From positions 1 to 63,693 of the IMG/VR virus record IMGVR_UViG_3300018954_000002: a stretch of DNA of 63,693 nt, one strand, 5' to 3'. A program made the position numbers and the translations under genes. Positions 11,421 to 62,907 of this stretch are shown piece by piece (position 1 is the first letter of the stretch; the number at the start of each line of letters is the position of its first letter). The notes beneath the pieces were generated by a model, which had not been told where the DNA came from, did no database searches, and saw nothing but the letters and a program-made list of their open reading frames with translations. Origin of the DNA: a virus.

Positions 11421-11449
11421 TCCCCGTGCTTCGTCTGACTGGTACGCCT

Positions 11450-11479: not shown

Positions 11480-11519
11480 GAGTTGCGGCGAGCCGCGGCG
11501 GGCATCTCGTGGCCGCAGG

Positions 11520-11976: not shown

Positions 11977-12372
11977 TCAGTCGCGAGGGGCCAGTTTCGT
12001 CACGCCGAGGACTCGGCTGGCGTGCAGGGCTGCCGCGCCGTGGCTGTCGCCCTGGCCGTGTCGACGTGCGATCAGGTGCAGCAGGGCTTCGTCCACCCGC
12101 TCGAACCGTAGGTGGTCGCCCTCGCCGCCGTGCACCGTGGCGAAGTTCAGAGTGGCGATCGAGCCGCGCTCGTAGCGGATCACCTCAACGACGTACGAGC
12201 CGGTCACGTCGAGTTCCGCGTCGGGCTCGATGTCGTCGAACAGGCTGACCACGTGGCCGATCCGGTAGCGGTCGCCGAGGCGCAGGATGGTGGCGAGTGC
12301 CTGGTTGCGCTGGAAGATCCGGTGCTGCCGCTCGTAGGCGGCGTCTCGCTCGATCTCCTGAAGGCGGTTCAT
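11977..12372 (-). CDS. Hypothetical protein (131 aa)
   Basis: AGAGGA RBS. Protein-like composition. Confidence 0.6.
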   Translation of the reverse strand: MNRLQEIERDAAYERQHRIFQRNQALATILRLGDRYRIGHVVSLFDDIEPDAELDVTGSYVVEVIRYERGSIATLNFATVHGGEGDHLRFERVDEALLHLIARRHGQGDSHGAAALHASRVLGVTKLAPRD

Positions 12373-35222: not shown

Positions 35223-36095
35223 TCACCCGAACCCGGGGCGCGGCGACAGGTGGCGGGCGTACGCGGCGTCCGTCTCGGGGATGCCGGTCCGGTCCTCGGT
35301 GGCTGAGGCGTAGACCGTGCTGCCGCCGGCCGCGTCCACCGTGACGACCCGGGCGGCGCGGTCCGAGAGCGCCGACTGGTTGGCCATCGCGAGGCTCTTG
35401 AAGCGCAGCAGGGCACCGCGCTTGATGTCGGGCACCGGGCGGTCGTGGCCGTGCTCGTACTCGACGACGACGTTGCGGGCGCCGGGGTGCACCGACCCCC
35501 ACGAGCCGGGCGGGTAGATCAGGCCCGTGTCGGAGAACGTCAGCGCGGCGACTGCGGATGGGGCGTACGCCACGCCGTTGACGGTCATCGCCCGGACGGC
35601 GCGGATCATCGTGTGGGTGGTCACCAGGGGCCCGAGGGAGTTGCCGGACAGGGTCTCGCGGCAGAACCGGGGCACCCACGCCTGCCCGGTGATCTGCTCG
35701 CACTCGTCCTCGGTGTTGGTGCGCGCCTCGATCAGTTTCGCGGTCGGGTAGCGCGTGGTGTTCTGTAGCGCCGCGTCGGACGCCCGTCCCTCGGCGAGAC
35801 CGAAGTAGAAGCTGCCGACGACCTCGATCCGGTCCTGGTCGAAGACGATGGCGTCGCCGCCGAACGTGCCCGACCACGTCACCGTCAGCTCGTCGAGGAC
35901 GTCGGAGCCGGGGAACAGGTAGGAGTATGCGTTGTTGATGTCCGGACCGGTGGCCGACGCGACGTCGACCACCGTCCCGTCCAGGCGGGCGACGGACACC
36001 GTGACGGACCCCGTAGCGGGCGTTCCCACCTCGTCGAGATAGAACGTCCGCTGCAAGGTCGCCTTGGAGGTCCGCAGGACCCGCAGATCGGTCAC
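35223..36095 (-). CDS. Virion structural protein (290 aa)
   Basis: GTG at 36095. Called from position, between the head and tail genes. Confidence 0.5.
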   Translation of the reverse strand: MTDLRVLRTSKATLQRTFYLDEVGTPATGSVTVSVARLDGTVVDVASATGPDINNAYSYLFPGSDVLDELTVTWSGTFGGDAIVFDQDRIEVVGSFYFGLAEGRASDAALQNTTRYPTAKLIEARTNTEDECEQITGQAWVPRFCRETLSGNSLGPLVTTHTMIRAVRAMTVNGVAYAPSAVAALTFSDTGLIYPPGSWGSVHPGARNVVVEYEHGHDRPVPDIKRGALLRFKSLAMANQSALSDRAARVVTVDAAGGSTVYASATEDRTGIPETDAAYARHLSPRPGFG

Positions 36096-36096
36096 G

Positions 36097-36585
36097 TCAA
36101 GCCTTCGGCTTCCCGGTCCGACCCTGCGGCGGCTGCGTGCGCGCACCGCTGCGCAGCGACTCGACGTCCACCCGGGCCGACCCGCCGGTCGGGGCCGCCG
36201 GCTCGTCGCCGATGACGTCGCGGACGTCCTGCGAGTTGTCGTAGGCCGCCTCCACGGCTGCGCGCCGCTTCTCGGCCGCGTTCGTGAGGTCGCTCATCTC
36301 CGCTCCGATCCGCTTCTCTGCCGCGATGGTGAGCTGTTCGTTCGAGTCGTGCGGCGGGATGTTGCGGGGGTCGCTGCCGTCGAACGGCACCTTCGGGTTG
36401 GTGTTGTCGTCGATCGTCGGGTCGCTCGTGCCGTGCGGCTGCACCGGCACGTGCCCGGAGTTGTCGGTGACGACGTTGTTCGGCTGCGGCTCGGGCTGCG
36501 CGCCCTCGATGTCGCTGGCCGTGGGCGGCGGCGCCGTCTCTTCCTTCGGCGCCGCGGTCGACTTGCTGTCCTTCTGCTCAGCCAT
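36097..36585 (-). CDS. Hypothetical Pro/Asp-rich protein (162 aa)
   Basis: ATG at 36585. Confidence 0.5.
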   Translation of the reverse strand: MAEQKDSKSTAAPKEETAPPPTASDIEGAQPEPQPNNVVTDNSGHVPVQPHGTSDPTIDDNTNPKVPFDGSDPRNIPPHDSNEQLTIAAEKRIGAEMSDLTNAAEKRRAAVEAAYDNSQDVRDVIGDEPAAPTGGSARVDVESLRSGARTQPPQGRTGKPKA

Positions 36586-37551: not shown

Positions 37552-39003
37552 TTAGAAGGTCGGGGTGACCATGCCGGTGTCGGTGATCGCCTGCACCGAG
37601 TTACTAAACCGCCTGAAGCTGTAGGCAAAGTAACCATACAGGACCATAAGGACACCCAAACTCGCCGCCGCGGCCTGCTCTGCCCGGATGAAGATCGGGG
37701 CGTTGGGGTCTTCCCAGAGATGGCACTCGTCGGTGTCGACGATGTAGATCCGGTCCTCATTCGTGCCCGTGCCGAGGTTGGTCGCGATGTTCGCGTCCGT
37801 GACCACGGCCAGACCCGACGGCAGGAACCCGCGGAACCCGCGCCCGTACTCGGCGCCGGTCGCCACGCCGCCCGCGTCGCCCGGGATGTTCGGCTGCTGG
37901 ATGAACGGGCGCGAGGTGGTGAGCTGCGACTGCATCCAGTACCACCGGCGGGGGTGCATGAGAGCCACCTTCGCCGAGCCGAGACCTTGGAGTGCCGTCT
38001 CGACCGCGCCGGCCGCGCCGAGCAGCTTCGGCCACAGCTCGGCCGCCGTCGGGGAGGCGTCGGTGTAGGCGTTGGCCACGGCTACCGCGTTGAGCCCGGT
38101 CGTCGCCTGGTTGATCAGGGTGGAGTCCAGGGTCGCCGCGTACCGGCGCATGAGGTCGTCCATCACGACGCCCTCGACGCCCGTGCCACGCTCGATCGCC
38201 TGACGGGACAGGGTCTGCTGGCCCGCCGCCGTCTGGATGTTCTCGGTCAACAACGTGTCGTCGATGTCGGTGTTGCTGACGTTCGTGTTCTCCGACGCCT
38301 GCAACGCCACGCTGGTCGGCGTGGTGATGCGGGAGATGTTGACCGTCATGCCGGAGTCCGGGAGGTCGTGGCGGTTGCAGATGTCCGCGAACGGCCGCAT
38401 GTTCGACAGGGCCGGGGCGTACAGCTCCGTGAGGTACTGCGGCACGACGAGGCCCGCGAACGCGCCGGTGCCCGCCGCACGGGTGAGGTACTGGCCGCGC
38501 TCGACCCGCTCCTCCTGCATGTGGCGGTTGAGTCGCTGCTCGGCCTCCAGGTCGCCGTAGAGGGTCTTCATGACGATGTCGCGCACGAACGGGCCGCCCT
38601 TGCCGGTGTTGCCCCGGTGGTAGGTGCGCTCCTCCTGGCCGATGCGGTGCACGTGGTCATAGGCGGGGGATCCTCCGGCGCGCTGGCCGCGCTCGGGGAG
38701 CGGCTGCGCGCCGCCCGGCCCGCGCTGCGCGAGCGCTTCGTCGGCCTCCATCTCGCGGACCTTGGTCCGGCGGGCGATCTCCAGCTTGCGCCGGACGCCT
38801 TCGAGCTCGGCCTTGGCTGCGGAGTCGTTGCGCTCCTCGGCCTGCACTTCGTCGTCTTCGGATTCGGTCAGGTTGGCACGGCCGTCACGCTTCGCGCGTT
38901 CGAGGATGGAGCGGATCGTCGCGCGGGAGCGGTCGCCGCGCTTGATGGCCTGCTCTTCCTCAACCTCAAGGCCGATGATGATGTCGTCGATCGTCGCAGC
39001 CAT
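37552..39003 (-). CDS. HK97-fold major capsid protein with an N-terminal coiled-coil delta domain
   Basis: AAGGAGA RBS before the ATG at 39003. 483 aa. Confidence 0.85.
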   Translation of the reverse strand: MAATIDDIIIGLEVEEEQAIKRGDRSRATIRSILERAKRDGRANLTESEDDEVQAEERNDSAAKAELEGVRRKLEIARRTKVREMEADEALAQRGPGGAQPLPERGQRAGGSPAYDHVHRIGQEERTYHRGNTGKGGPFVRDIVMKTLYGDLEAEQRLNRHMQEERVERGQYLTRAAGTGAFAGLVVPQYLTELYAPALSNMRPFADICNRHDLPDSGMTVNISRITTPTSVALQASENTNVSNTDIDDTLLTENIQTAAGQQTLSRQAIERGTGVEGVVMDDLMRRYAATLDSTLINQATTGLNAVAVANAYTDASPTAAELWPKLLGAAGAVETALQGLGSAKVALMHPRRWYWMQSQLTTSRPFIQQPNIPGDAGGVATGAEYGRGFRGFLPSGLAVVTDANIATNLGTGTNEDRIYIVDTDECHLWEDPNAPIFIRAEQAAAASLGVLMVLYGYFAYSFRRFSNSVQAITDTGMVTPTF

Positions 39004-39058
39004 GACGGCTGTCTCCTTACGTAGCAGGGTGTGAGCCTGCCGCGCAGGAACGGTCACG

Positions 39059-42551: not shown

Positions 42552-44123
42552 TCACCCCAGACTCGATCCGATGGAGTACGAGCCGCCAAGCCACTCGACC
42601 TCCTCGCCCGCCGCACGGGCCAGCGTCACCGCGTACGTCGGCGAGGCGTCGCCGCCCTCGCCCGCGCGCTGCCACCGCCACTCGTCGCCGAACGTGTACT
42701 TCGCCAGCCCCGCGATGGAGTCGTTAAGTTCCGGCTGGTCGATGTGCCTGATCCTACGGTCCGGGCGATCAGATTCGGTCGTCCCGACCTCGCCCGTCTC
42801 CAAGAAGAACTGCCGACACGCCTTCGACACGTCGGGGCCCTGCATCACCACGAGTTCGGTGTCGACGTTCGCCTCGGCCAGCGCCCGGCGTAGCGGGGTG
42901 ATGATCGGGGCCGCCGGGCCGTGCGCCGCGATGCCGATCGAGCACGGGCCCATGCGCTCCGCGACGTCCACCAGGGCGGGCACCGTCCACGACAGGCCCG
43001 GCTCGCGGGCGACCAACTCGACGTAGGTGTCGCCGTTGACGTCGAGCGCCGCCATGCCGATCGAGGCCACCGACTGATCCGGCGCCGCGTCCACGCCGAA
43101 CGCGATCGGGTCCAGGTAGCGGCCCGACACGTTGGGCACCCGCAGGCCGCGCCACGTCGCCTCGGTGATCACGCCCCACTTCGCCACGCGCGCGTCCGGC
43201 TCCCACCCGAGGTACTCGGCGCAGAAGTCGATCAGGTCCATCGCCTCGAAGTCGGAGCGGATCGCCGCCTCGTCGACCGTGTGGCCGAGCGCTGGCATGC
43301 ACGACCACCACGTGTCCGGGTCCGCCGGGTCCATGTCCGGGTCCGCCGACCACTCGAAGTACGCCACCCGCGAGCGCACCCCGGCCTGCACCCGGTGCCG
43401 GCCGTTCTGCCGCTTGGTGTGCAGGTACGGCCACGTCCCGGGCATCTTGCGGGACAGCCCCGGGATCATCGACGCAATCCAGAGCTGGCGCCACTTGCGG
43501 GTCAGCATGGCAGGGCGCAGACCCAGTTCGGTCCGCATGTCCTCCTTCGCCCACGCCTCGTCGATCACGGCCAGGTCGATCGTGTCACCGGTACCGCCGG
43601 TCTTCGCCGTGGTGCTGCCCGGCCCCCACGTCGACCGGTTCGGCCATTTGATCTGCTCGAAGTTGGTCCGCAGCCGCACGTCGATCTGCGGGGCGAACGC
43701 CGACTCCTTGAGCCGCTCGACGTGGATGTCGCGCCACTTCTGTTTCGCGTTGTCGGCGGTCTGCGCGGTGTAGAGGACCCGCTGCGGGCCGGGGTCGACG
43801 ACCGGGCGGCCGAGTTCCTCGCGTACCCACTGCGCCAGCTTCGCGTTGATCGCCGTGCACCGGTGGGTCATCAGGGGGAACATAAACTCCGTCTTGCCCT
43901 GCTGCCGGTTGATGATGAGCACGGCCTCGTCGTACGCGAAGTACCCCGTGTCCGGGTCGATCTCCAGCGCGACGTCGGCGATCAGGTGTTGGTGCGGAAG
44001 GAACGGCTTGCCGAGCTTCGCGGCGACCTTCGCCAGCCCGGGGCCGAGCGTCGGCCGATCCGGGGTCCGCGGCGTGGCGAACCGGGGCGGGCAGCGCAGG
44101 TCGGCCGCGGTCAGGGTGGTCAT
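42552..44123 (-). CDS. Terminase large subunit
   Basis: 523 aa from the ATG at 44123. ...LIINRQQGKTEF...DLAVIDEAW... ATPase motifs. Confidence 0.85.
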   Translation of the reverse strand: MTTLTAADLRCPPRFATPRTPDRPTLGPGLAKVAAKLGKPFLPHQHLIADVALEIDPDTGYFAYDEAVLIINRQQGKTEFMFPLMTHRCTAINAKLAQWVREELGRPVVDPGPQRVLYTAQTADNAKQKWRDIHVERLKESAFAPQIDVRLRTNFEQIKWPNRSTWGPGSTTAKTGGTGDTIDLAVIDEAWAKEDMRTELGLRPAMLTRKWRQLWIASMIPGLSRKMPGTWPYLHTKRQNGRHRVQAGVRSRVAYFEWSADPDMDPADPDTWWSCMPALGHTVDEAAIRSDFEAMDLIDFCAEYLGWEPDARVAKWGVITEATWRGLRVPNVSGRYLDPIAFGVDAAPDQSVASIGMAALDVNGDTYVELVAREPGLSWTVPALVDVAERMGPCSIGIAAHGPAAPIITPLRRALAEANVDTELVVMQGPDVSKACRQFFLETGEVGTTESDRPDRRIRHIDQPELNDSIAGLAKYTFGDEWRWQRAGEGGDASPTYAVTLARAAGEEVEWLGGSYSIGSSLG

Positions 44124-44329
44124 CGGCGATACCGGCGGCGGTAGTCCGCCCACAGGGCGGCGGCGAGAGCGCATAGAGCCGCCGCGGCGACGCATGACAC
44201 GACCGCCCCCCGCATCTCGTCCGGCTCGGGCATGCCGTCCGTTGCGACCACGAAGACGATCAGGGTCAGGCAGAACAGGGCGGGCACGGTGACAATCCAG
44301 GCGAGCGTGCGCGCGTCCCTGGCCTCCAC
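44120..44329 (-). CDS. Small membrane protein, 2 TM helices (69 aa)
   Basis: GTG at 44329. Confidence 0.45.
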   Translation of the reverse strand: MEARDARTLAWIVTVPALFCLTLIVFVVATDGMPEPDEMRGAVVSCVAAAALCALAAALWADYRRRYRR

Positions 44330-50788: not shown

Positions 50789-51424
50789 TTACGCCGACGA
50801 GTCGCCCCGTGTCTCCACGTCCCGCTCGTCCTGCATCTTTCCTCGCTGGTCCTGTGCGCGCCCGCGGACGTCCTGCGCTTGGGCTCGCTCGTGATCCTCC
50901 CCGAGCGCGAGCCGCACCGCACGGGCGATCCGCTGCTCGAAGTCGCCGTTCACCGCCTGCGCGGCCGAGGTGGCGGCGTCGGCGGCACGGTGCGCTTCCT
51001 GCTGACCGTAGAGAGCAAGCTTCCGGCTCTCCTTCGCCTCGGCCACGACCGCCTGCCGGGTCTCAAGGGTCCGCCGGGCATGGAGCATCGCAACGGTGAG
51101 GGTGCACAGCACGCCGATCGCACCGGTCGCGTTCAGGAAGAGATTGATCAGGCGAAAGAACGAGTCGGTCGGTGTGCCGGTGATCGCGAGAACGACGAAG
51201 ACGGCGAGGAATCCGACGAGGATCACCGTGCCGCAGACGATCGCGACGGCCGGGGCCGCCTTCACCCACTCGCCCTTGCCGGGCAGCTTCTGCACCCCCG
51301 CGTCGAACTTGTCGCCCGATCCCTTGCCCTGACCCTGGAGGGTGCGCAGCGCGGCGATCGTCTCGGCGAGTTCGCGCCGCTCCCGGTCCGCGTCACCGAT
51401 CAGGTCGCCGCCGTCCGACATCAT
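50789..51424 (-). CDS. Membrane protein of the lysis cassette (211 aa, 2 TM helices plus a charged tail)
   Basis: Directly downstream of the holin-like gene. Confidence 0.55.
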   Translation of the reverse strand: MMSDGGDLIGDADRERRELAETIAALRTLQGQGKGSGDKFDAGVQKLPGKGEWVKAAPAVAIVCGTVILVGFLAVFVVLAITGTPTDSFFRLINLFLNATGAIGVLCTLTVAMLHARRTLETRQAVVAEAKESRKLALYGQQEAHRAADAATSAAQAVNGDFEQRIARAVRLALGEDHERAQAQDVRGRAQDQRGKMQDERDVETRGDSSA

Positions 51425-51765
51425 GCAGGGCCCCCGTCCACTCGCTCGATCAGGTCGTTGGCTGCCTTCAGGTCCGAGCGGAAGAACAGGATGGCCGCCC
51501 ACGTCCCTACGGCCTGAATGACGTGCCACCACACCGCCACCCATCCGACAGCGGGATGCCGGTCGTGCCCGGAGAGTACGTCCCACACCATGTCCGAGTG
51601 CGAACCGGTGCAGCCGACGAAGAACACCGCCATGGCGACCATGGTTCGCCTCGACACTTCGAGATACGGCACGAGCAGCACCGGCACGAACAGGTAGCCG
51701 AGGGCAAGAACCACGTTCGCCACGACGTACAGCTGCGCGGCGAGTCCGTACTCCAGGCCCGTCAC
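51421..51765 (-). CDS. Holin-like polytopic membrane protein (114 aa)
   Basis: GTGA overlap with the endolysin stop. Three or four hydrophobic helices. Confidence 0.55.
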   Translation of the reverse strand: MTGLEYGLAAQLYVVANVVLALGYLFVPVLLVPYLEVSRRTMVAMAVFFVGCTGSHSDMVWDVLSGHDRHPAVGWVAVWWHVIQAVGTWAAILFFRSDLKAANDLIERVDGGPA

Positions 51766-53327
51766 CGGCCGGCTGCCAACCGGGCGCCGACCTCCGCGGC
51801 CCGCGCGCCGAGTGCGACCCGGAGCAACTCCGCGATCTCGTCGGCGTCCGCACCGCCCGCGGCCAGACCGGCGAGCACGTCGCGTGCCGCTTGGCTCACC
51901 TGCCGGTCGATGTGCGCCTTGATCTGCGCGAGCTCCTCGGCGTCCGGGACGTCGCGCTGCAACATCGCCATGACCGACTCCATCGTCGCCCGCAGGTTCG
52001 CGCGCATCTCCAGCAGGACCGAGTACGTGGTGTCCGGGCTGCCGACCGCGCCGACTCTCTGGTGCCACGGCGCGACCCGCAGGGCGCTCGCCTGCGGGGT
52101 CGCGACGCCGGGCGCGAGCCGCGCGGACCACCAGGCGTCCATGCGGGCGTTGAAATCGGCCTGCGAGATCGTTGCCATGTCGTCCTCCTCGGGTGGCGGC
52201 GCCGGTGTCGGCGCGACGCCCCACGGTCGGGTGTCGTTCTCCTGCTCGGTGGTGTACCGGGCGCTGAAGTGCGCGTGCTTGTCGTGCGGGTTCGCGCCGG
52301 TGTAGGGCCGCCACGCCCATCCCCACGAGCGGGACGCGATCCGGCCGTTACGGATGATGTTCTGCAGTCGCACGTCACGGCCCTCGGCGTGCGCCCGGCG
52401 GATAGCCTCCACCTTCGCATCGAACCATCCGGGCGCCGGCCAGGGCCCCGAGTCGTCGATATCGATCGCGTGGACCTCATTGACGGCATCGGAGTCGGTG
52501 AACGGCGTCTTCCCCGTCTCGTCGGGGTTGTGGTCGGATGAATCCTGCGCGTGCGCAGCGTCGCCGATGCTTCCGTCGCTCGCCTTGTCGCGGGTCGGGC
52601 TGACTCGGTTGAACTCCTCGCGCAGTGCGACCAGGCAGGGCACCAGGACCCAGCTCGGCGTTGGGGGCATCGGGTCACCTCCGGACATCGCAGCCCACAC
52701 CGCGGGGTCGCGGATCAGGGACAAGGAACAGCCTCCCGTACCCGGTAACGGTCGCACACCCCACTGCAGGATGCTGAACGACCGCCATCCGCCCCACCCG
52801 GCCGCCCAAGCGGGTGAATCCGCCGCCGGTTCGGCCTGCACGGGGGTGTTCGGCGGGCCCATCAGGTACGGGGTGAGGCTGGCCCCGCTCCAGCCGCGTG
52901 GCTTCCACCAGTAGTCCGCCGAGTAGATCGCGATCGGACGGCCCAGCGCCTCCTGCATGGTGCCGACGTAGTCGTGCACGTGCGCCCACGTCGGCGGGGC
53001 GATGCCGTTCTTGCCGTCCTCCTCGACGTCGACCACATGACCGAACCGCTCCAGTCGGACGCCGAACAGGTTCCGCAGCCGCGCGAGGTTCGTTTCGGCC
53101 TGCTCGACGCCCGATGTGCGCCCGTCGAGCCAGTGATAGGTGGATCTGCCCATGCCGAGGGCGGTCGCGTACGTCATCTGGTTGGCGAGCCACGACCCGG
53201 CGACGTAGCCGCGGCCCCCGGTGAGCGCGAGGTTCGCGATGCTGTAGCCGACGGACTTCGCCTGCGCGAGATCGAGCGGGTCGGAGCGTTCGACCTGCCA
53301 GCGGCTCACGTCGACCAGTCGGATCAT
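51762..53327 (-). CDS. Endolysin: N-terminal GH25 muramidase plus a central His/Asp-rich putative peptidase domain
   Basis: MIRLVDVSRWQ... (GH25 signature). SDGSIGDAAHAQDSSDHNPD...VHAIDID...HDKHAHF. Confidence 0.8.
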   Translation of the reverse strand: MIRLVDVSRWQVERSDPLDLAQAKSVGYSIANLALTGGRGYVAGSWLANQMTYATALGMGRSTYHWLDGRTSGVEQAETNLARLRNLFGVRLERFGHVVDVEEDGKNGIAPPTWAHVHDYVGTMQEALGRPIAIYSADYWWKPRGWSGASLTPYLMGPPNTPVQAEPAADSPAWAAGWGGWRSFSILQWGVRPLPGTGGCSLSLIRDPAVWAAMSGGDPMPPTPSWVLVPCLVALREEFNRVSPTRDKASDGSIGDAAHAQDSSDHNPDETGKTPFTDSDAVNEVHAIDIDDSGPWPAPGWFDAKVEAIRRAHAEGRDVRLQNIIRNGRIASRSWGWAWRPYTGANPHDKHAHFSARYTTEQENDTRPWGVAPTPAPPPEEDDMATISQADFNARMDAWWSARLAPGVATPQASALRVAPWHQRVGAVGSPDTTYSVLLEMRANLRATMESVMAMLQRDVPDAEELAQIKAHIDRQVSQAARDVLAGLAAGGADADEIAELLRVALGARAAEVGARLAAGR

Positions 53328-53350: not shown

Positions 53351-53388
53351 GAGAGGGCTCCGGGGATCGCCGGTCCCGGAGCCCTCTC
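53351..53388 (-). terminator. Strong hairpin immediately upstream of the endolysin start
   Basis: GAGAGGGCTCCGG ... CCGGAGCCCTCTC (13-bp stem). Confidence 0.55.
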
Positions 53389-53765: not shown

Positions 53766-53801
53766 GCCTAAACGATAACACGGTACCGTCTACCGTGTCT
53801 A
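53766..53801 (-). promoter_or_regulatory. Leaderless promoter with an inverted repeat in the spacer
   Basis: On the minus strand: TAGACA (53801-53796), 18 nt, TATCGT (53777-53772), 6 nt, then ATG(53765). Inverted repeat ACACGGTA/TACCGTGT at 53778-53798. Confidence 0.5.
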
Positions 53802-54146
53802 GCCCCTCGGAATGCCGCCGGGAAACCACTCGCGGGACGCCGGCCGCCGCGCGCTGGCACGTGCGCCGCGGGACTGATTGCACAACCGGTCGCACACCGG
53901 GCACGGATTCGGTGGCTCGCCGGGACCCATCGTGCCGTGCGCCGGGCGCAGGTTCGAGAGATCGTCCACACCCGGGATCAGTCGGCCCGCCACGTCGCGC
54001 GGCCACAGCCGGTGCGGGACGATGTGGTCCGCCGTCCGGGCGCCGTGGTGCCCGCAGATGCCGCAGATGTCGTTCGAGGCTAGTAGAAGGGCCCGATTCC
54101 GCCGGTACGGGCGGCTACCGGTGCCGGAGCGCCCCGATCCGGTCAC
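53799..54146 (-). CDS. HNH endonuclease (115 aa)
   Basis: GTGA overlap with the fibre gene stop. CGICGHHGARTADHIVPHRLWP...NLRPAHG...CPVCDRLCN. Confidence 0.7.
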   Translation of the reverse strand: MTGSGRSGTGSRPYRRNRALLLASNDICGICGHHGARTADHIVPHRLWPRDVAGRLIPGVDDLSNLRPAHGTMGPGEPPNPCPVCDRLCNQSRGARASARRPASREWFPGGIPRG

Positions 54147-57100
54147 TCGACCGACGAGTAGCGCAGTGAGCCGGAGGGTTCGGCGTACGCCACCGATGTC
54201 CGGCCCGGCTCGACCGTCGACCGGGCCACGGTCACCGAGTCGGCCACCACGAAGTCGACCACGCCGGTGAGCATCTCGGCCGACGCGAGCAGGGTCACGA
54301 CCGCGGCCAACGCCGCGCCGGTGCTGCGCATCTGCGCTCCGCCCGCGGACAGGGACACCGTGACGGTCAGGACGGTGGAGATGGGGGCGGATCTGCCGGT
54401 CGTGGTCGTGAACGTGGCCGAAATCGCCAGCACGGCACCTGCGGCAGGCCCGCGTGTCGCCGCGGCAGACAGCGAGACGGTGATGGCGAGCGTGGCCGTG
54501 GCCAGCACGGGCGGCGTGTCCGTGGTCGCGTCGGCCGCGAGCACCGCGGTGGCCGCGAGAGACGCGGCGGCGAACAGGGACTCCACGGCGGCGGCGGCCA
54601 CCGTCGCGGTCACCAGCAAGGCGGCCGCCGCGGCGCGTTGCGGCGTGACCGCGGCGGACAGCGTGGCGACGGCGGCGAGCGCGGCACTGGCCACCTGAGC
54701 CAGCGTTGCGGCCGTCGTCAGGGTCGCGGTGACGTTCAGGGCGGCGATCGCAGGCGAATCGCCGAGCACGGCGCCTGCCGAGAGCGCCGCAGTGGCCGAC
54801 AGCGCCGCATCCACCGGAGCGGACCTGCCGCCCGTGGCCGCCAGGGTGGCGGCCACGGCGAGGGACGCCTGCGCGGACAGCGTCCCGACCGCCGCAGCCG
54901 CGAGCGTCGCCGTGGCCGCGAGAGACGCGACGGCCGTCCTCGACACCGGAGCGGTCGCGGACAGCGTGACCGTCACCGGCAGGACGCCGGCCAGCGGGCG
55001 GGAGACGGGCGTGGCGGTCGCCAGGGTGGCCGTGACGGGCAGAACCGCCGCAGCAGACCGGGCGGCCGGCGCCGTGGACGCGAATGTGGCCGTCACCGGC
55101 AGAGCGGCGTCCGCCGTGTCGGTGACGGTGGCCGCAGTGGACAGGGTCGCCGTGACGGCAAGGGCGGGTCCGGCCACCGCGGTCCGGTCGGCGGCTGCCG
55201 AGAAGGTCGCCGTCGCTGCCAGCGCCGCCGAGGACGTGGCGGGGGTGGAGACGTCCGCGGCGGCTTCGAAGGTCGCTTCGACGGCGAGGTCGGTGGCGAA
55301 CGTCATCGGGATCAGGCTGGCACCGGCCGCCAGGGTCGCGGTGACGGCGAGGCTGGCGACGGCCGACTCGACGATCGCCGTGCCGAACGACAGGGGCATC
55401 TGCACCCGTACGATGCCGTCGTCGGTGGTGATTCCCTGGTACGTGACGCTGATTGTGGTGCCGTCGTCGGCGAAGTCGAGCCAGCCGTACGCCCTGAGGA
55501 CCGCCGGGTAGGTGTCGTACGTGCCGAACGAGTAAGTGATGCTGCTCATGTCGAGAGAACCCTGCTGGAACGGGGCGCCGCACGCCTGCGGGATGCCGAC
55601 GGCGCCGGGTGTCGACCCGTCGTCGGCGGCCAGGGCGTGGGTGTCGCCGAAGATCACGAAGACCTTCCCGGCGACGCCGGCCGTGTTGTTGATGAAGTTG
55701 GTCATCTCCTGGAATTCCGTGGCGAACGACGACCAGCGGTCGCCCGACGTGCCGCCCTCGGTGCGCCACGCCATGTTCCCGCAGATGACTTTGAGCGGCT
55801 CGGTCTCCTGCAGCCGCGCCTTGAGCCACGCTTTCTGTTCGACGCCCAACATCGATTTCGACGACGAGTCCGGGTCCAGATAGTTGTTGCGCTGGCTGCG
55901 CGGGTCGATCTGAATGAACCGGACCCGGCCGATCACCCAGGTCTGCCACGCCCCCCGACCGTCGGTGGCCGGCAGGTTGTAGTGCGGAATCACGTTGCGG
56001 TACGCCGCGGCGACGTCGGCGCCCCTGACGTTGTTCTTGTCGCTGCCGTTTCCTCCCCAGTCGTGGTTATCCCACATGTACGTTATGGGGATTTCCGACA
56101 ACATCGGGGCGAACAGCGGTTGATCCAGGGTCTGGAACCACTGGTCGTAGACGCCTTGCAGGGTGTCGCTGGCCCCCCAGTCCTCGTAGTGGATGTCGCC
56201 CATGTGGATCAGGCGCCGAGCCTTGCCGGAGCCGGCCGCGACGCTGCCTGTCTTCTGCCTGATCGCCTCGAACGTATTCGTCGAGAGCACGGTGAACTGA
56301 CACGACCCGAAGGCCACCGAGAAGTTCGCCGCCGTACCGGGCGTGGGGTCGGTGGTGAACGACCCGAACCCCTCGCTGTTGATCGTCCCGTCGGCCTCGA
56401 CGCCGTAGTAGTACAACGTGTTCGGGCTGAGGCCGGTGACGGACAGCTTCGCGAGGCCCTGCGTGCCGGCCGCGACCGCCGTGCCGAACACCGGCGAGGT
56501 CAGCAGGTCCGCCGTGGTGCTCACCTTGAGCCGGGCGGTGCTCGTCAGGCCGGAGAAGGCGTACGTCACCGTGCAGCCGCTCGACGACACGTTGCCGCAC
56601 ACGGGGCCGAGAACCACCTGTGGCGGCGGGTTGCTGGTCTGCCCGTACGGCACCAGCTCGAAGATGAACCACACCGCGGTCGACGAGCTGACCGCGCCGG
56701 AGCCGTTGGTGAGCGAGACCGGCAGCTGCCGAACCAGGCCATTACTGTCGTGGATCGAGGTGGACGGGTTGATGCCCGTCGGGGCGGTTCCGGGCTTCGC
56801 CGCCGCCCTCGTGGTGTATCCGGTGGGCGGATTCCAGGTCGATCCGGACCGGTCGCCGAAACTGACCCCGATCCACGGCAGTGTCGAGCCGGGGGTGATC
56901 GTGGACGTGGTGTGCAGCGCGGTCGACGCGCCGGACTCCCACCCCGAGGCGTACGACCCGACCGGGGTCGTCTCCGAGCACCCGGCGTAGGCCATGGCGG
57001 CGAGCGCCCACTCCACCGCCGATGAGCAGGTGAACGTCAACGCCGTGGCGTCGCCGGTGCGCCAGATGCGCCACAGCCACGCCGCGCGGTGGTCGTTCGG

Positions 57101-57445
57101 CGAGCCGGTGTCCGAGATCGGGCCGACCTGCGTCCACGTGCCCTGATTCGGGGTGATCGTGGCGGCGCTGATACCCCCGGCGTGCGCGTCCACGGTGATC
57201 GCCACCATGACGAGGTCGCCGTCCTGCGGCGCGATGGTCAGCGTGGGGGAGGTGAGCGCCGTGGCGTCGGAGACGGTGGCCGCGGTCCACCCGGCGGGCT
57301 GCCGGACGAAGATGGGCGAGCGGACCGCGACGATCTGCGAGGGCACCGGGTACGGGACGGCCGCCTCGCCGTACCCGAGCGTCGTCCACCGGTTTGACTG
57401 GCCGACGTACGGACTGGCCGCGCCACCGCTCTGGTAGATCGGCAC
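54143..57445 (-). CDS. 1100-aa tail-fibre-like protein with a PhoD-like metallophosphoesterase domain and 18 C-terminal repeats of 20 aa
   Basis: VTGLSPNTLYYYGV (PhoD_N-like), FGSCQ, HMGDIHYEDW, WDNHDWGGN, FGDTHA. The C-terminal 366 aa have a 20-residue period around (L/A)xVTATL. Confidence 0.75.
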   Translation of the reverse strand: MPIYQSGGAASPYVGQSNRWTTLGYGEAAVPYPVPSQIVAVRSPIFVRQPAGWTAATVSDATALTSPTLTIAPQDGDLVMVAITVDAHAGGISAATITPNQGTWTQVGPISDTGSPNDHRAAWLWRIWRTGDATALTFTCSSAVEWALAAMAYAGCSETTPVGSYASGWESGASTALHTTSTITPGSTLPWIGVSFGDRSGSTWNPPTGYTTRAAAKPGTAPTGINPSTSIHDSNGLVRQLPVSLTNGSGAVSSSTAVWFIFELVPYGQTSNPPPQVVLGPVCGNVSSSGCTVTYAFSGLTSTARLKVSTTADLLTSPVFGTAVAAGTQGLAKLSVTGLSPNTLYYYGVEADGTINSEGFGSFTTDPTPGTAANFSVAFGSCQFTVLSTNTFEAIRQKTGSVAAGSGKARRLIHMGDIHYEDWGASDTLQGVYDQWFQTLDQPLFAPMLSEIPITYMWDNHDWGGNGSDKNNVRGADVAAAYRNVIPHYNLPATDGRGAWQTWVIGRVRFIQIDPRSQRNNYLDPDSSSKSMLGVEQKAWLKARLQETEPLKVICGNMAWRTEGGTSGDRWSSFATEFQEMTNFINNTAGVAGKVFVIFGDTHALAADDGSTPGAVGIPQACGAPFQQGSLDMSSITYSFGTYDTYPAVLRAYGWLDFADDGTTISVTYQGITTDDGIVRVQMPLSFGTAIVESAVASLAVTATLAAGASLIPMTFATDLAVEATFEAAADVSTPATSSAALAATATFSAAADRTAVAGPALAVTATLSTAATVTDTADAALPVTATFASTAPAARSAAAVLPVTATLATATPVSRPLAGVLPVTVTLSATAPVSRTAVASLAATATLAAAAVGTLSAQASLAVAATLAATGGRSAPVDAALSATAALSAGAVLGDSPAIAALNVTATLTTAATLAQVASAALAAVATLSAAVTPQRAAAAALLVTATVAAAAVESLFAAASLAATAVLAADATTDTPPVLATATLAITVSLSAAATRGPAAGAVLAISATFTTTTGRSAPISTVLTVTVSLSAGGAQMRSTGAALAAVVTLLASAEMLTGVVDFVVADSVTVARSTVEPGRTSVAYAEPSGSLRYSSVE

Positions 57446-57451
57446 CGGGCG

Positions 57452-57883
57452 CTACTCGTCGTGGATCCAGGAGACTTCGACCGCGGGACCCGTCGCCGCG
57501 CCGAAGTTCCAGAGCAGCAGGCCCGCGGACACGGGTACGACGAGACCCTGCGGGAACGTCCAGATCATGCCGGAGCCGATGACCGCCGGAAGAACGATCT
57601 TCTCCATGTAGACCGTGCCGATCGTTGGCGCCGTGGTGATCGCCGTGTCGACCGCGCAGGTCGACGCCACCGACCGGACGTCCTCAGCCTGAGGGGTCGC
57701 CGAGGTGAACGTCGCGCCGACCGTGGCCGAGCGGATCACGCCCACCGACAGCGCCACGGCGGTCGAGGTGAAGACCTTGATCTCGAAGATGCGGGCGACC
57801 CGGTCGGCGGGGGTGCGGAACTGCGACACGAAAGTACCGGTCGCGGGCGCCGCCTTGGTGACGCCGGTCCTGTACCTCGCCAC
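57452..57883 (-). CDS. Hypothetical (structural?) protein (143 aa)
   Basis: GGAGG RBS before the GTG at 57883. Confidence 0.5.
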   Translation of the reverse strand: MARYRTGVTKAAPATGTFVSQFRTPADRVARIFEIKVFTSTAVALSVGVIRSATVGATFTSATPQAEDVRSVASTCAVDTAITTAPTIGTVYMEKIVLPAVIGSGMIWTFPQGLVVPVSAGLLLWNFGAATGPAVEVSWIHDE

Positions 57884-57884: not shown

Positions 57885-58235
57885 TCAGCCTCCAGCCCGG
57901 CGCAGGGTCGCCGCCGCCACGTCGAGTTCGGTCGCTGCGTTGCGCTCGGCCAGTTCGGCAACGTGCACAGCGTTCATCAGCACCTCGCCCGAGTCGGACC
58001 CGGGCTCGTCATCCGGTCGACCGGCCCGTTCCCACTCGGCCAGTCGGGCGCGGCAGGCGGACAGGGCGCGGGCGGCGTCGGCGTGACGCACCCTCGCTTC
58101 GAGCACCTCGCGCTGGAGCGGCTCGATCATCTCGGGTGCCCGCAGATCCTCGGTGCCCACCACCGTGCGGGCGGCCGGGCCGCGGCCGAGGGCGGGCCAC
58201 TCCAGGACGGCCTCGGGGCCGTCCGGCCCGGTCAT
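57885..58235 (-). CDS. Hypothetical protein (116 aa)
   Basis: ATGA overlap at 58235. Confidence 0.5.
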   Translation of the reverse strand: MTGPDGPEAVLEWPALGRGPAARTVVGTEDLRAPEMIEPLQREVLEARVRHADAARALSACRARLAEWERAGRPDDEPGSDSGEVLMNAVHVAELAERNAATELDVAAATLRRAGG

Positions 58236-58625: not shown

Positions 58626-59009
58626 TCACTCGCCCTTCACGACGTCGTCGCGTTCCGCGAACGGGTCCTTGATCTTCATGACGTGGTCGAGCATCTTGCG
58701 GCCGGTGCCCGGCGCGTTGGCTACCTGCGGCCCGCAGGTGCCGGTCGGGCATCCGGCGTTCGCGCAGCAGTCGAGGTGGCGATCGGAGCTGGCCCGGTCC
58801 TGCAATTCGCGAAGCAGTCGCGGCCGGTCGGCAACCGGGGCGTTGTCGAGGACCCGGTTGACGATCTCGTCGGAGACCTCGATCTGCAACTCGTCGGGCA
58901 GGTCGGCGCCGCGGGTGCCGGCGATGGAGTGCCGGGGGTGGTCGTCCACGCCGCCGCAGAGGTCGCAGACCTTGAGGACGCGGCCGTTGCCGATGGATCC
59001 TGCTGCCAT
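58626..59009 (-). CDS. Cys-rich hypothetical protein (127 aa)
   Basis: ATG at 59009. CDLCGG ... DCCANAGCPTGTC. Confidence 0.5.
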   Translation of the reverse strand: MAAGSIGNGRVLKVCDLCGGVDDHPRHSIAGTRGADLPDELQIEVSDEIVNRVLDNAPVADRPRLLRELQDRASSDRHLDCCANAGCPTGTCGPQVANAPGTGRKMLDHVMKIKDPFAERDDVVKGE

Positions 59010-59089
59010 CCGGGGGGACCTCGCCGTCTGCGATGCGATGATGCGCCCGATCATCGCATCCTGAGTGCCCCGATGCCAATGCCGGACAG

Positions 59090-60924: not shown

Positions 60925-61097
60925 GGGGTGGACAAATTTTGGTTAAGGGGTGGAGGGGTGGACATTGTCCACCCCTACCCCCGAGGCATGCCGCGCGTAC
61001 GGTCAGAATAAGTTGTTGTTATTAGGACATACCGACCCTGTTTTTGGCGGAATCCGGGGGTTAGGGGTGGACACGTGTCCACCCCTCCACCCCTTAA
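60925..61097. repeat. Symmetric cluster of GGGGTGGA(CA) repeats and palindromes around an AT-rich core (candidate origin or operator)
   Basis: Single copy at 60925-60934. Perfect palindromes at 60955-60975 and 61064-61085. 22-bp inverted arms TTAAGGGGTGGAGGGGTGGACA (60943-60964) and its complement (61076-61097). AT-rich core at 61005-61035. Confidence 0.85.
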
Positions 61098-62497
61098 TCA
61101 AGATCACTCAGCACGTACGTAACGGTCGGCTGACCGCGGTACTCCGAGGGCTTTCCGATCACGTCTCCGGACATCAGCAGGAGATCAACGGCAGCATCGA
61201 AGTACTGCCGGTCCCTCGATGCCAGGGCCGAGCGCAACGGACCGCGTTGCATGCCGTCCGCGCCCACCCGGGCGAGCCTCTTGCGGATCGAGCGCAACAC
61301 CCGCTGCACGTCCGCCTCGCCGACCTTCTCGGTGACGATGATCGCCCGCTCGGCCTCGGCGACCGCCACGCGGGCGTTCGCCTCCCGCTGCACCGCCGAG
61401 AGCGCCTCGACGCACACGGTGCGCGTTGCGTCGGACACCGCCATGACGACGCCGGCAAGGCGCCAATCGTCCTCGCTGGCCGCCGTACGCCCGTCCAGGA
61501 TGGCCAGCGCGCACGCCACCTTGACGCGGGTCAGCACGGCGTGACTGTCGAGGGCGTCGCCGACGTCGCGGTTACGGTCCTGCCGTGCCTGCCGGATGGT
61601 CCGCTCGGCCACCTCCGGGATGTCCATGAAGATCCGTGACTGCCGCTTGAGCTCGACTGTCGGGCACTCGTTCCAGTCCGGCGGTCGCCACAACATCGGC
61701 GGCGGCGTGGCCGGCAGGTCGTCGATGTCCGGGGCGTCGCGGTCGCTGACCGGCAGCCACACGAACCGCTGTGGCGTGCCGCCGTCCGCGTCGCCGAGCA
61801 GCGCGGCCGACCGGCGCGGCTGGATGCCGGCCCACAGGCACATCCGGTACCGGTGCTCCGGCACCATCATCCGTTTCGCCTCGTCCACGTAGAAGAACCC
61901 GAGCTGCTCGCCCATCGCGGCCTGCCGCAGCTGCCCGGTCAGGGTGGACGCCTGCCGGTTCGCCAGCGCGGCGAGGTTGTCGATCTCCGGGATCTCCACG
62001 AGCGCAGCGTGGTTGTACATCTTCGGCGGGTCGCCGCGCTTGCCCGGCCGCATGAACATGTGCGACAGGCCCTCGCCGCTGCCGAGCGGCGCCGTGCGGA
62101 ACGACGTCTCCCGCTCGCCGAGGTCGAGCACCTCCCCGGCGACGCCCGCCGCCGCCCCCTTCCCGCTGCCAGACGGGCCCACGAGCCCGATGAACAGATT
62201 CAGACTCGCCGCCGTGCCGATGACCGGCGGGATCTGCACGAACGGCGGCGTCGCGGCGACCACACGGGTGAGCACCGAGCCGAACACCGCCCACGGCCCG
62301 GACATCCGGGACCGGGCGTAAGTGCGGATGTGCTCCAGAACCGGACGCTCCGTCCAGAAGTCGCCCGGCTTCGCCTCCTGCCGCTCGTCCTTGGTGATGG
62401 CGACCTGATCCCATCCCTCGGGCGGCTCGCGCCAGATGAGGTCTTCCCAGTCGTCTTCGTCGGGATGCCCCGGCACGACCGGGAGGTCCCCCGCCAT
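61094..62497 (-). CDS. DUF3987-like P-loop NTPase (putative replicative helicase or initiator)
   Basis: 467 aa from the ATG at 62497. Walker A GLVGPSGSGKGA, FFYVDEAKRM, GTPQRFVWLPV. Confidence 0.55.
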   Translation of the reverse strand: MAGDLPVVPGHPDEDDWEDLIWREPPEGWDQVAITKDERQEAKPGDFWTERPVLEHIRTYARSRMSGPWAVFGSVLTRVVAATPPFVQIPPVIGTAASLNLFIGLVGPSGSGKGAAAGVAGEVLDLGERETSFRTAPLGSGEGLSHMFMRPGKRGDPPKMYNHAALVEIPEIDNLAALANRQASTLTGQLRQAAMGEQLGFFYVDEAKRMMVPEHRYRMCLWAGIQPRRSAALLGDADGGTPQRFVWLPVSDRDAPDIDDLPATPPPMLWRPPDWNECPTVELKRQSRIFMDIPEVAERTIRQARQDRNRDVGDALDSHAVLTRVKVACALAILDGRTAASEDDWRLAGVVMAVSDATRTVCVEALSAVQREANARVAVAEAERAIIVTEKVGEADVQRVLRSIRKRLARVGADGMQRGPLRSALASRDRQYFDAAVDLLLMSGDVIGKPSEYRGQPTVTYVLSDLD

Positions 62498-62907
62498 CAC
62501 GGAGCCTCGGCGGTGCCCGGCTCGACGACGGCAGGCCATTCGACGTCCGGGTCGGGCATCTCGCCTACTCGGACCACGTTGCCGGCCTCGTCGACGCCAG
62601 TGGCGCCGCGCGCCGGGATCGGCCGCGGCGGGCGCGCGGCGTCGATCGCACGCTGACGTTCTGCTCCGGCCTCGATGGCGGCCAGTCGCTCGCGGTACCG
62701 CTGCTCGGCGGTGCGCTTCACGATCGGCTCGCCGGCCCACCGGACGATGTCCTCGGACATCTCCAGCGCGAGCGACGCGCCGGAGCGGAAGGCGAGGGCG
62801 AGGAGGTACGCCACCTCTGAGCGGTTGAACGTCTCCCGCTCGTTGAGCTGCCGCTGCACTACGCACCCGGAGCACCCGGGGCAGTCCGTGGCCAGGTGGA
62901 TCGTCAT
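62497..62907 (-). CDS. Hypothetical protein with an N-terminal Cys cluster (136 aa)
   Basis: MTIHLATDCPGCSGCVV... ATGA overlap upstream. Confidence 0.55.
   Translation of the reverse strand: MTIHLATDCPGCSGCVVQRQLNERETFNRSEVAYLLALAFRSGASLALEMSEDIVRWAGEPIVKRTAEQRYRERLAAIEAGAERQRAIDAARPPRPIPARGATGVDEAGNVVRVGEMPDPDVEWPAVVEPGTAEAP

Follow-up and report, generated by a model that had tools for sequence, protein, structure and literature searches.

Within the viral contig IMGVR_UViG_3300018954_000002 of IMG/VR, whose entire 63,693 bp we analysed and refer to as the window, we investigated a minus-strand gene (54143..57445) that encodes an 1100-amino-acid (aa) protein with a PhoD-type metallophosphoesterase domain. 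The best explanation of the observations as a whole, to which we assign a probability of roughly 55%, is that this protein forms the backbone of an accessory fibre of the virion and brings a PhoD phosphodiesterase with it. The fibre would be of the 'rope-and-bead' kind found in the podophage GP4 (Fiber I) and in the myophages Bas63 and Sf14 (collar whiskers). A rare beta-rich domain at the N-terminus would serve as the binding head; behind it would stand an FN3-like domain and a PhoD-family metallophosphoesterase of the Fe/Ca type, probably active; each of about 18 repeats would contribute one amphipathic beta-strand for the docking of one Gp80-like subunit, encoded two to three genes upstream; and a short C-terminal tail would anchor the fibre in the virion, with the neck/collar or a position along the tail as the probable site. 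The enzyme would hydrolyse phosphodiester bonds of an anionic surface polymer of a Micromonosporaceae host, either wall teichoic acid or another phosphate-linked glycopolymer, and cleavage of this polymer would open a way for the virion through the wall layer in adsorption, or free it from debris, in the manner of the phi29 gp12 neck appendages. In this scheme we infer incorporation into the virion, Gp80 docking, the site of attachment, enzymatic activity and the substrate.

The PhoD-type domain

The gene is one unbroken open reading frame (ORF) with a GTG start, its stop codon included in the coordinates given above. An independent gene call by the Joint Genome Institute (JGI; protein P0001), made on the same 63,693-bp contig, of which the window is the whole, yields an identical 1100-aa product. 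The GC content at third codon positions (GC3) is 0.94 in the N-domain, 0.93 in the core, 0.90 in the repeats and 0.93 in the tail, which is coding-like for a 70%-GC genome. The long antisense ORF overlapping the gene has the inverted pattern (first-position GC1 0.92, GC3 0.59), indicating that the long ORFs in the antisense and other frames are artefacts. That the 1100-aa ORF is itself an artefact of GC-rich DNA is ruled out by its GC3 of 0.90-0.94, by the independent gene call and by its many homologues.

The first-pass annotation had proposed a PhoD-like metallophosphoesterase on the strength of five signature motifs, and all five are present in the ORF (VTGLSPNTLYYYGV at aa 336, FGSCQ at 379, HMGDIHYEDW at 414, WDNHDWGGN at 458 and FGDTHA at 599). 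The profile search and structure prediction that it had suggested as checks both led to PhoD. The match to Pfam family PF09423 (PhoD) scored 31.0 bits, above its gathering cutoff of 27 (E=1.9e-7), homologues reaching 40-43 bits, and three PHROG families, annotated 'unknown', 'hydrolase' and 'phosphodiesterase', were matched with E-values from 4e-106 to 3e-49. A profile built from 17 family cores detected in the Protein Data Bank (PDB) the PhoD of Bacillus subtilis (2YEQ, E=2.8e-27) and entry 9UYA, deposited as 'Alkaline phosphatase, secreted' (E=1.8e-16). Single-sequence phmmer searches of the PDB with the full protein and with its C-terminal region gave no matches, so that only the family profile produced one. 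In an AlphaFold2 (AF2) model based on 23 homologues, aa 275-690 have a predicted local distance difference test score (pLDDT) of about 90, with the strands of aa 276-364 at 81-96. The best Foldseek match of this model in the PDB is again 2YEQ (E=7.4e-19, template modelling (TM) score 0.63, target-normalised), followed by plant purple acid phosphatases (PAPs; 1e-10 to 1e-13) and then by SMPDL3 phosphodiesterases (about 1e-5). Together, model and matches describe the two-sheet PhoD/PAP metallophosphoesterase fold preceded by a beta-sandwich N-domain, and the match of the latter to Pur_ac_phosph_N (E=1.1e-3) lies under the Pfam cutoff. We considered a true purple acid phosphatase and rejected it: motif 1 has Cys (GSCQ) in place of Asp, motif 5 is GDTHA, of the PhoD type GDxH and not GHxH, and the Foldseek matches to PAPs are the weaker ones. 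True PAPs have Asp in motif 1 and bind a divalent metal through His2-Asp-Asn ligands (PMC4223295). It is thus nearly certain that the core, aa ~275-690, is a PhoD-family domain of the Cys subtype.

The metal ligands can be compared with those of B. subtilis PhoD. In that enzyme Fe3+ is bound by Cys (or Asp), Asp, Tyr and His, namely C180, D207, Y210 and H438; the CaA site consists of the Asp residues D265 and D266 and the bridging D436; and the CaB ligands N271 and N272 are described as near-invariant in the family. Activity is lost in the mutants C180A, D265A, N271A, N272A and D436A, and severely impaired in D207A and D266A (PMC4223295). A sequence-profile alignment points to C382, D417, Y420, D459, N460, H461, D601 and H603 as the ligand candidates of the phage protein. 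The Fe3+-site residues C382, D417, Y420 and H603 align with C180, D207, Y210 and H438, respectively, and are unchanged in 23 homologues; equally invariant in these are D601, which corresponds to the bridging D436, H461, which corresponds to H267, and the adjacent D462. In the CaA site D459, the counterpart of D265 (Asp or Ser in the scan pattern), is conserved along with D601, and the counterpart of D266 is N460, a position with Asn or Asp across the family, so that the motif reads DNHD where PhoD has DDHE. As judged from these alignments, the Fe site and the bridging Asp are under strong conservation, and we regard a catalytically competent domain as likely. Neither a twin-arginine motif nor a hydrophobic segment was found in the first 60 aa (maximum Kyte-Doolittle hydropathy 1.25), and there is no signal peptide; this implies that the protein is not exported, and that its substrate would be reachable only on the virion or after lysis.

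Repeats, Gp80-type genes and the candidate fibre

The domain at the N-terminus has only 14 relatives among 1.84 billion representatives in an exhaustive search, some of them 51-65% identical. Its AF2 confidence is low, and its similarity to phrog_553 ('minor tail protein') is weak (E=0.002). Since it occurs elsewhere as a standalone protein, on a right-handed beta-helix protein and on another protein with ~20-aa repeats, it is probably a binding head module. At the other end of the protein, the repeat unit combines a core A-A-L-x-V-T-A-T-L-s-A-a-A with a 7-aa linker of Pro, Arg, Gly and Asp, and the periodicity is pronounced (autocorrelation 0.32 at lag 20, z=15). The long C-terminal repeat domain noticed at first pass is therefore real, with about 18 units of 20 aa, but it does not resemble those of receptor-binding proteins, as had been supposed: it is a low-complexity array of strands, tied to Gp80-type genes. 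AF2 places one amphipathic beta-strand in every 20 aa, with pLDDT <50 and no confident independent fold. At the DNA level the tandem repeats are weak and the copies have diverged, indicating that the repeats are old and have been kept at the protein level, and are not the product of recent slippage. The non-repeat tail of aa 1057-1100 would be the virion anchor; it is at this end that homologues are fused to DUF6093 or to a major-tail-protein domain.

Upstream of the PhoD gene lie the small genes of a Gp80-like protein, of a Cys-rich protein (w142) and of an all-beta protein (w143). The Gp80-like protein matches PF23140, 'Podophage GP4 fiber I protein gp80' (E=1.2e-23), and chain a of PDB entry 8JOU (E=1.5e-9), and a profile of its 20-sequence family finds 8JOU_a at 3e-33 and the whisker chains 9MT4_I and 9C39_K (Bas63/Sf14) at about 1e-10. 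In GP4 Fiber I (gp80) and in the Bas63/Sf14 whiskers, small subunits sit as dimers along an extended 'rope' polypeptide that is anchored to an immunoglobulin (Ig)-like collar around the head-tail adaptor. We assayed the association of such genes with the repeats in 93 distinct PhoD-core proteins, counting a protein as periodic when z was >8 at a lag of 20-29 and looking for a small gene within 2.2 kb upstream. A Gp80-type, phrog_644, phrog_3758 or w143 gene was present upstream of 11 of the 14 periodic proteins as against 5 of the 79 without repeats (Fisher p=2e-8), counts that are phylogenetically non-independent and for which such neighbours had themselves provided the seeds of three small families; for PF23140 alone the figures are 7/14 and 3/79 (p=3.5e-5). 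Two of the three exceptions (L025 and L033) have divergent Gp80-like and w143-like ORFs upstream when inspected by eye. The PF23140 gene is directly upstream of the PhoD gene in L009, L010, L053, L057 and L065. The repeat-less homologues of ~650 aa stand at the end of tail modules, in the order tape-measure protein (TMP), Dit, Sipho_Gp37, further genes, PhoD and lysin, with no Gp80 gene. Two contigs encode a pair of PhoD-core paralogues each (L047, 9233-13015 and 15306-18122; L053, 3910-7761 and 9263-12343), one with 20-aa repeats and a Gp80 gene upstream, the other with a long non-periodic C-terminal extension.

The same adjacency is seen in unrelated annotated phages. In nine of nine, namely a GP4-like Ralstonia podophage, six mycobacteriophages, Gordonia phage GordDuk1 and Skermania phage SPI1, the neighbourhood protein with the strongest lag-20/40 periodicity (z 5.0-16.4) adjoins the Gp80-like gene, in GreaseLightnin with one small gene in between, and the 48 other neighbours have z<=3.4. 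In the structurally solved system of Felix O1 type, the 166-aa gene directly 5' of the whisker gene is that of the deposited 'Collar protein' (9MT4_G, E=4e-105), which according to the Bas63 paper bears the rope as an N-terminal extension. In Ralstonia phage RPZH3, the gene adjoining the GP4-type Fiber-I gene (ORF87, L093:2867-3844) encodes a 325-aa 'virion associated protein' with about 11 Gly/Ala/Leu-rich units of 20 aa and a 10-aa sub-period; 8JOU contains 10 Fiber-I chains. Taken together, the association of repeats with Gp80, the adjacency in all nine phages, the solved collar neighbour and the unit count of ORF87 favour each 20-aa repeat as a docking site for one Gp80-like subunit, and we hold it reasonably probable that the repeats form a Gp80 rope. 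An anchoring collar or adaptor ring at the neck may be hinted at, by eye only, by the long head-tail adaptor of the window and by beta-rich N-terminal extensions on the gene following PhoD in relatives; Pfam searches of the head-tail adaptor candidates found nothing.

A sibling contig (L179, 62.9 kb; JGI 3300062859 Ga0604468_0000046) has the same fibre cassette at the equivalent genomic position (9240-12139), where replication genes are followed by w142, Gp80, w143, the large protein and a lysin. Identities to the window are 69% for w142 (a 120-aa gene in the sibling), 72% for Gp80 and 66% for w143. The large protein of the sibling, 566 aa long, lacks the PhoD core: an N-domain is followed by about 13 repeats with the same consensus (DAALAVTATLAATA) and then by a C-terminal tail that is likewise similar. 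Thus PhoD is an optional cargo module of the cassette. The sibling backbone is in effect a natural 'deletion' control.

Genes of the Gp80 family were found in 409 GenBank phages, 363 of which are mycobacteriophages, and are often annotated 'head protein'. Such 'head protein' genes occur at the end of the tail module, adjoining a 20/40-aa-periodic 'minor tail protein', in myco- and Gordonia phages (L094, L095, L097, L178, L182-L184) and in Skermania phage SPI1 (L096). These actinophage pairs are probably fibres of the GP4/Bas63 type, and the label 'head protein' is doubtful.

Probable virion association, candidate substrate and alternative explanations

The PhoD core is widespread. A large-database search returned 22 relatives of the 1100-aa protein, at least 100 viral contigs of IMG/VR encode relatives, a scan of GTDB genomes gave 308 loci, and annotated homologues exist in at least 63 GenBank phages. 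What is conserved is the FN3-like and PhoD core of ~420 aa, which takes an N-terminal, central or C-terminal position in proteins of 394 to 1845 aa; the relatives are otherwise variable, with two unrelated types of N-terminal domain and hypervariable C-terminal extensions. Its gene neighbourhoods and fusions point indirectly to the particle. In the closest relatives (L004, L005, L007, L009 and L010) the Gp80-PhoD pair has the major capsid protein on one side and the connector/tail-tube genes on the other, and the homologue of Microbacterium phage Phinky is flanked by the major tail protein and the head-to-tail adaptor. In protein P0006 (834 aa; L005:7679-10183) the PhoD core is fused to DUF6093 (E=4.7e-30), a fusion that replaces the small gene following PhoD in relatives and that translates to the query in two JGI contigs. 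Protein P0014 (868 aa), recorded on two contigs whose DNA was not readable, is fused at its C-terminus to a domain of phrog_792, 'major tail protein' (E=9e-78). A 'capsid fiber protein' comes after the homologue in Nostoc phage YongM, and in liquid chromatography-tandem mass spectrometry of a preparation of that phage the homologue ranks seventh, with 35% coverage; for A-1(L)-like cyanophages a 2026 preprint describes phoD as 'consistently adjacent to neck fiber genes'. Synteny, the fusions with structural proteins and the crude proteome of YongM make display of the 1100-aa protein on the virion likely. The phage with the PhoD-DUF6093 fusion also encodes, after its tail genes, a separate GDPD-domain protein (PF03009; L005:18940-19761), so that two phosphodiesterase folds are present in one phage.

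All of the closest genomic relatives, 46-52% identical in the PhoD core, belong to the Micromonosporaceae (Actinoplanes, Micromonospora, Salinispora and Krasilnikovia), which makes this family the likely host of what we take to be a phage of soil actinobacteria; prophage relatives occur in the assemblies GCA_040300925.1 and GCA_043204765.1. Wall teichoic acid is the obvious candidate substrate because teichoic acid is the presumed target of B. subtilis PhoD (PMC4223295), because teichoic-acid phosphodiesterases of other folds are borne by virions (phi29 gp12, the GDPD of phage Ld17 and enterococcal GDPD tail proteins), and because teichoic-acid hydrolysis has been proposed for ORF22 of Thermobifida phage P1312. 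By this analogy a substrate of the teichoic-acid type is possible, yet we put it forward as the doubtful part of the scheme. No biochemical characterisation of any phage PhoD was found in the literature searched.

Several observations weigh against a fibre enzyme of this kind. The PhoD fibre cassette of the window lies away from the head and tail modules, isolated between replication and lysis genes. Of the virion data, those on YongM come from a preparation that had been no more than 'amplified, concentrated' and in which DNA polymerase and thymidylate kinase were present as well, and the virion mass spectrometry table of P1312 gives no coverage for ORF22, though the TMP and ORF23 were detected. 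The cyanophage phoD of the 2026 preprint was transcribed independently of the neck-fibre genes. The periodicity of the Bas63 collar/rope is not significant (z=1.6), the rope being too short to show any; ORF87 could not be confirmed as the published GP4 'rope', for it has no sequence match in the PDB; and phrog_644, phrog_3758 and w143 have no detectable homology to Gp80 (best hhalign E=0.011, probability 3.8%), on which ground we dropped the notion that the four form one family. In the active site the CaB ligands of PhoD are not conserved, N271 aligning with a near-invariant Gly (G465) and N272 with position 466, variable across homologues, in a stretch where the local alignment may be shifted; with D266 replaced by Asn in addition, the trinuclear PhoD centre may not be intact, and at the third metal site the phage protein may depart from PhoD. 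As to the substrate, homologues occur in cyanophages and in metagenome-assembled genomes of Verrucomicrobia, Bacteroidota and Chloroflexota, and since these include Gram-negative bacteria and hosts without teichoic acids, teichoic acid cannot be the general substrate of the family. A literature search for teichoic acids in Micromonosporaceae (Actinoplanes, Micromonospora) yielded nothing directly usable.

Four other explanations have to be weighed against the fibre enzyme. The protein might be an auxiliary metabolic enzyme, a soluble PhoD that scavenges phosphate from organic phosphoesters for replication and adjoins fibre genes by coincidence. Cellular PhoD enzymes are indeed phosphate-starvation phosphatases, the homologues of the Streptomyces BE cluster lie among tRNA genes in a non-structural region, and the 2026 preprint took the independent and very high transcription of phoD during infection as a sign of phosphate acquisition; yet the phoD-carrying phage of that study was inhibited, not helped, by phosphate depletion. 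Here, moreover, PhoD is covalently inserted in a fibre scaffold that the sibling phage has without it, its relatives form part of structural modules or are fused to them, and the protein has no export signal although PhoD chemistry is extracytoplasmic, so that we consider a metabolic role unlikely. We give little credence to a non-virion accessory enzyme of lysis, released together with the endolysin and cleaving phosphodiesters of teichoic acid or its linkage unit in analogy to mycobacteriophage LysB. It would suit the place of the gene directly upstream of the GH25 endolysin and of holin-like membrane proteins, as well as the repeat-less homologues immediately before lysins, but the slot before the lysis cassette is the normal place of the last actinophage tail-fibre genes. 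The closest relatives carry the gene between capsid and connector genes, far from lysis, and the coupling to Gp80-type subunits and the fusions to structural proteins would be left unexplained.

Phage fibres often carry degenerate enzyme folds, and the PhoD fold could serve as a lectin for phosphate polymers, that is, as a receptor-binding domain without hydrolysis; the unconserved second-calcium ligands and the Asn at D266 would then be accounted for. However, 23 homologues, some with an overall identity as low as 24%, all keep the Fe-site and bridging ligands and the catalytic His, a conservation that speaks for selection on the chemistry. The DNHD motif, too, can be likened to GNH(D/E), which we take to be the corresponding active motif of purple acid phosphatases, the enzymes that appear among the Foldseek matches, and a purely binding function is quite improbable. 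Very unlikely, finally, is a nuclease or phospholipase D (PLD)-like enzyme acting on extracellular or incoming DNA, with superinfection exclusion as a result, or on membrane lipids or lipoglycans. DNA degradation that blocks superinfection was the first suggestion of the P1312 authors for ORF22, Streptomyces PLD enzymes belong to the PhoD family, and 9UYA and SMPDL3 are among the profile (E=1.8e-16) and Foldseek (about 1e-5) matches, respectively; against this stand the lack of any specific nuclease similarity and the poor placement of a neck or side fibre for reaching the membrane. A surface polymer would be a better match for an enzyme displayed on a fibre that has a binding head, and the accessory fibre backbone with a PhoD phosphodiesterase remains the explanation that we prefer.

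Gene neighbourhood and relation to known systems

The features of the window are collected in Table 1.

Table 1. Coordinates of features in the window, from the fibre cassette and the domains of the 1100-aa protein to the remaining genes
Feature	Position	Strand	Remarks
Sigma-70-like promoter match	59050..59079	minus	TTGGCA-18-GATGAT with TG; just upstream of w142; consensus match only
w142, small Cys-rich protein	58626..59054	minus	first cassette gene; true start probably internal, ~M16-I20
Gp80-like fibre/whisker subunit, 130 aa	58232..58624	minus	PF23140
Possible 116-aa Ala/Glu/Arg-rich helical ORF	57885..58235	minus	uncertain gene; fills the gap between the Gp80-like gene and w143
w143, conserved 143-aa all-beta jelly-roll protein	57452..57883	minus	putative second small fibre partner
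Gene of the PhoD-bearing putative fibre backbone	54143..57445	minus	whole gene including stop
N-terminal beta-rich domain, putative binding head	56636..57445	minus	aa 1-270; rare; no signal peptide
FN3-like beta-sandwich, PhoD_N / purple-acid-phosphatase N-domain	56342..56623	minus	aa 275-368; Pur_ac_phosph_N E=1.1e-3; AF2
PhoD-type metallophosphoesterase catalytic domain	55376..56341	minus	aa 369-690; Pfam, PHROG, family profile, Foldseek
~18 x 20-aa repeats, proposed rope with docking sites for Gp80-like subunits	54278..55357	minus	aa 697-1056
Non-repeat C-terminal tail, proposed virion anchor	54146..54277	minus	aa 1057-1100
Perfect GC-rich hairpin GAGGGCTCCGGG...CCCGGAGCCCTC, 12-bp stem	53353..53386	minus	before the endolysin; read directly from the sequence
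GH25 endolysin	51762-53327
Two predicted multi-pass membrane proteins, probable holins	51421-51759 and 50789-51400	minus	directly after the GH25 endolysin; Pfam matches weak, non-specific
Large terminase	42552-44195	minus
Portal and protease genes		minus	
Major capsid protein	37552-39057	minus
Head-tail adaptor	35223-36146	minus	307 aa, unusually long; phrog_442
Major-tail-protein-like gene		minus
Tape-measure-like gene	29830-32511	minus
Primase/polymerase	61094-62875
HNH endonuclease gene			present in the window

The first-pass annotation had placed the gene in an operon with small, tail-associated-looking genes. The tight same-strand cassette is there, with a Gp80 fibre-subunit gene in it, but it is not part of a tail or baseplate module. 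A promoter scan of the region gave two matches where shuffled sequences led us to expect 0.2. The protein w142 belongs to no family of Pfam or PHROG, and its stop is 1 nt from the start of the Gp80-like gene. The 116-aa ORF has GC1/2/3 of 0.84/0.57/0.85, shares an ATGA overlap with the Gp80 stop and abuts the w143 start with its own stop; it has no Pfam match and is missing from the sibling L179, where the Gp80-like and w143 genes abut. The w143 gene has a GGAGG Shine-Dalgarno sequence ahead of its GTG at 57883 and a stop 7 nt before the start of the PhoD gene. Its 37 homologues include 62-66% identical genes immediately 5' of the large fibre gene in L004 and L179. An AF2 model of w143 (pLDDT 93.7) found no significant fold match in the PDB, and in BFVD matched many uncharacterised phage proteins (TM up to 0.8). 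Beyond the PhoD gene, the hairpin before the endolysin is the likely end of the transcription unit; it has no T-run and so was not called by the terminator scan.

Between the fibre gene and the lysis genes, a small minus-strand ORF (53799-54125) slightly overlaps the 3' end of the PhoD gene and has the HNH-like pattern CGICGHH...HIVPH...N...H...CPVCDRLC. It has no Pfam match and is possibly a homing endonuclease inserted at this place. Two tiny minus-strand ORFs start from 53765 and 53631, the one encoding a 44-aa Cys-rich product and the other a product of ~55 aa beginning MPAPKR, with a promoter-like site at 53801-53772 upstream. The window as a whole is a complete or near-complete siphovirus-type genome. 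A megablast search with 23.7 kb of it against GenBank phages gave no match, indicating that it is not a known phage, and a tRNA search of the window found none.

Part of this picture is already known: PhoD-like genes in at least 63 GenBank phages and in three PHROGs, the solved GP4 and Bas63 fibres, virion teichoic-acid phosphodiesterases of other folds, and the teichoic-acid hypothesis. The first-pass annotation had presented a PhoD teichoic-acid depolymerase as a departure from the classical types, but the idea was published in 2015 for P1312 ORF22 and has precedents in phi29 gp12 and the Ld17 GDPD. New are the PhoD core as an optional module in a Gp80-type fibre backbone, the rule that a Gp80 gene stands next to a 20-aa-periodic protein across actinophages, and the joint reading of actinophage and cyanophage PhoD as fibre components. 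A wider proposal, which we offer tentatively and rate somewhat below even odds, is that Gp80 fibres are a widespread modular display platform of actinophages, with one ~20-residue repeat per subunit and exchangeable heads, carrying here the first virion depolymerase of the metallophosphoesterase type for phosphate-linked wall polymers, and that the cyanophage 'phoD AMGs' (auxiliary metabolic genes) beside neck-fibre genes are likewise fibre enzymes of the virion. If true, PhoD/PAP metallophosphoesterases would form a fourth catalytic class among virion enzymes that attack Gram-positive wall polymers, and a potential source of depolymerases of teichoic acid or other anionic polymers for actinobacteria. 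Phage 'phoD' genes now listed as hydrolases, purple acid phosphatases or AMGs would be re-read as components of accessory fibres, hundreds of actinophage 'head protein'/'minor tail protein' pairs could be re-annotated as GP4/Bas63-type fibres by the Gp80/20-aa-periodic rule, and repeat number would predict fibre length.

The nearest characterised enzyme is B. subtilis PhoD (2YEQ), with which the phage domain shares the fold, the N-terminal beta-sandwich, the Cys/Asp/Tyr/His pattern of the Fe site with the bridging Asp, and membership of the Cys-type subfamily, described for PhoD and Streptomyces PLD (PMC4223295). It differs in its low identity (~17%), in having no Tat (twin-arginine translocation) signal, in the loss of the CaB residues N271/N272, in DNHD for DDHE, in the missing C-terminal capping helix and in its location inside an 1100-aa phage fibre protein. 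P1312 ORF22 (phrog_24476), a 'phosphodiesterase' of 1096 aa, is similar in its PhoD core (31.5% identity, E=9e-37) and in its structural gene neighbourhood. Its core, however, is N-terminal and followed by a CBM4_9-type region without 20-aa repeats, its gene comes directly after the TMP and a tail protein (a Tal-like position), and no Gp80 partner was seen there; the 2015 paper, in which teichoic-acid hydrolysis was hypothesised, also predicted a signal peptide.

For the fibre the models are GP4 Fiber I (8JOU) and the Bas63/Sf14 whiskers (9MT4, 9C39), which have a homologous small subunit and a partner polypeptide from an adjacent gene. Their rope is short and carries no enzyme, being an N-terminal extension of the Ig-like collar in Bas63 and a separate protein in GP4, whereas the putative rope of the window is ~360 aa long, C-terminal and joined to a PhoD enzyme and an extra head domain. 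The function would resemble that of phi29 gp12 and the GDPD of Lactobacillus phage Ld17, as virion-displayed cutting of wall polymers of the poly(glycerol/ribitol-phosphate) type in adsorption. The phi29 appendages are attached to the neck. In those phages the fold is a beta-helix or a GDPD TIM barrel and the activity has been shown; in the window the fold is a PhoD/PAP metallophosphoesterase sandwich and the activity is predicted.

The cyanophage PhoD proteins (YongM, Elbi, A-Lf14/A-Alj1/A-Hlh1) have a core of ~33% identity and genes that adjoin neck or capsid fibre genes, and one was seen in the YongM preparation; they differ as separate proteins of ~630 aa, not fused to a fibre, from hosts without teichoic acid, and are read in the literature as AMGs for phosphate acquisition. 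The SEA-PHAGES genes labelled 'purple acid phosphatase' or 'hydrolase' (Streptomyces BE cluster, Microbacterium EK1 and others) likewise share the core, the BE proteins aligning from about aa 209 and thus having in common some of the sequence ahead of the core, but their products are ~650 aa long and free of repeats, the BE genes stand among tRNAs, and in EK1 their presence is variable.

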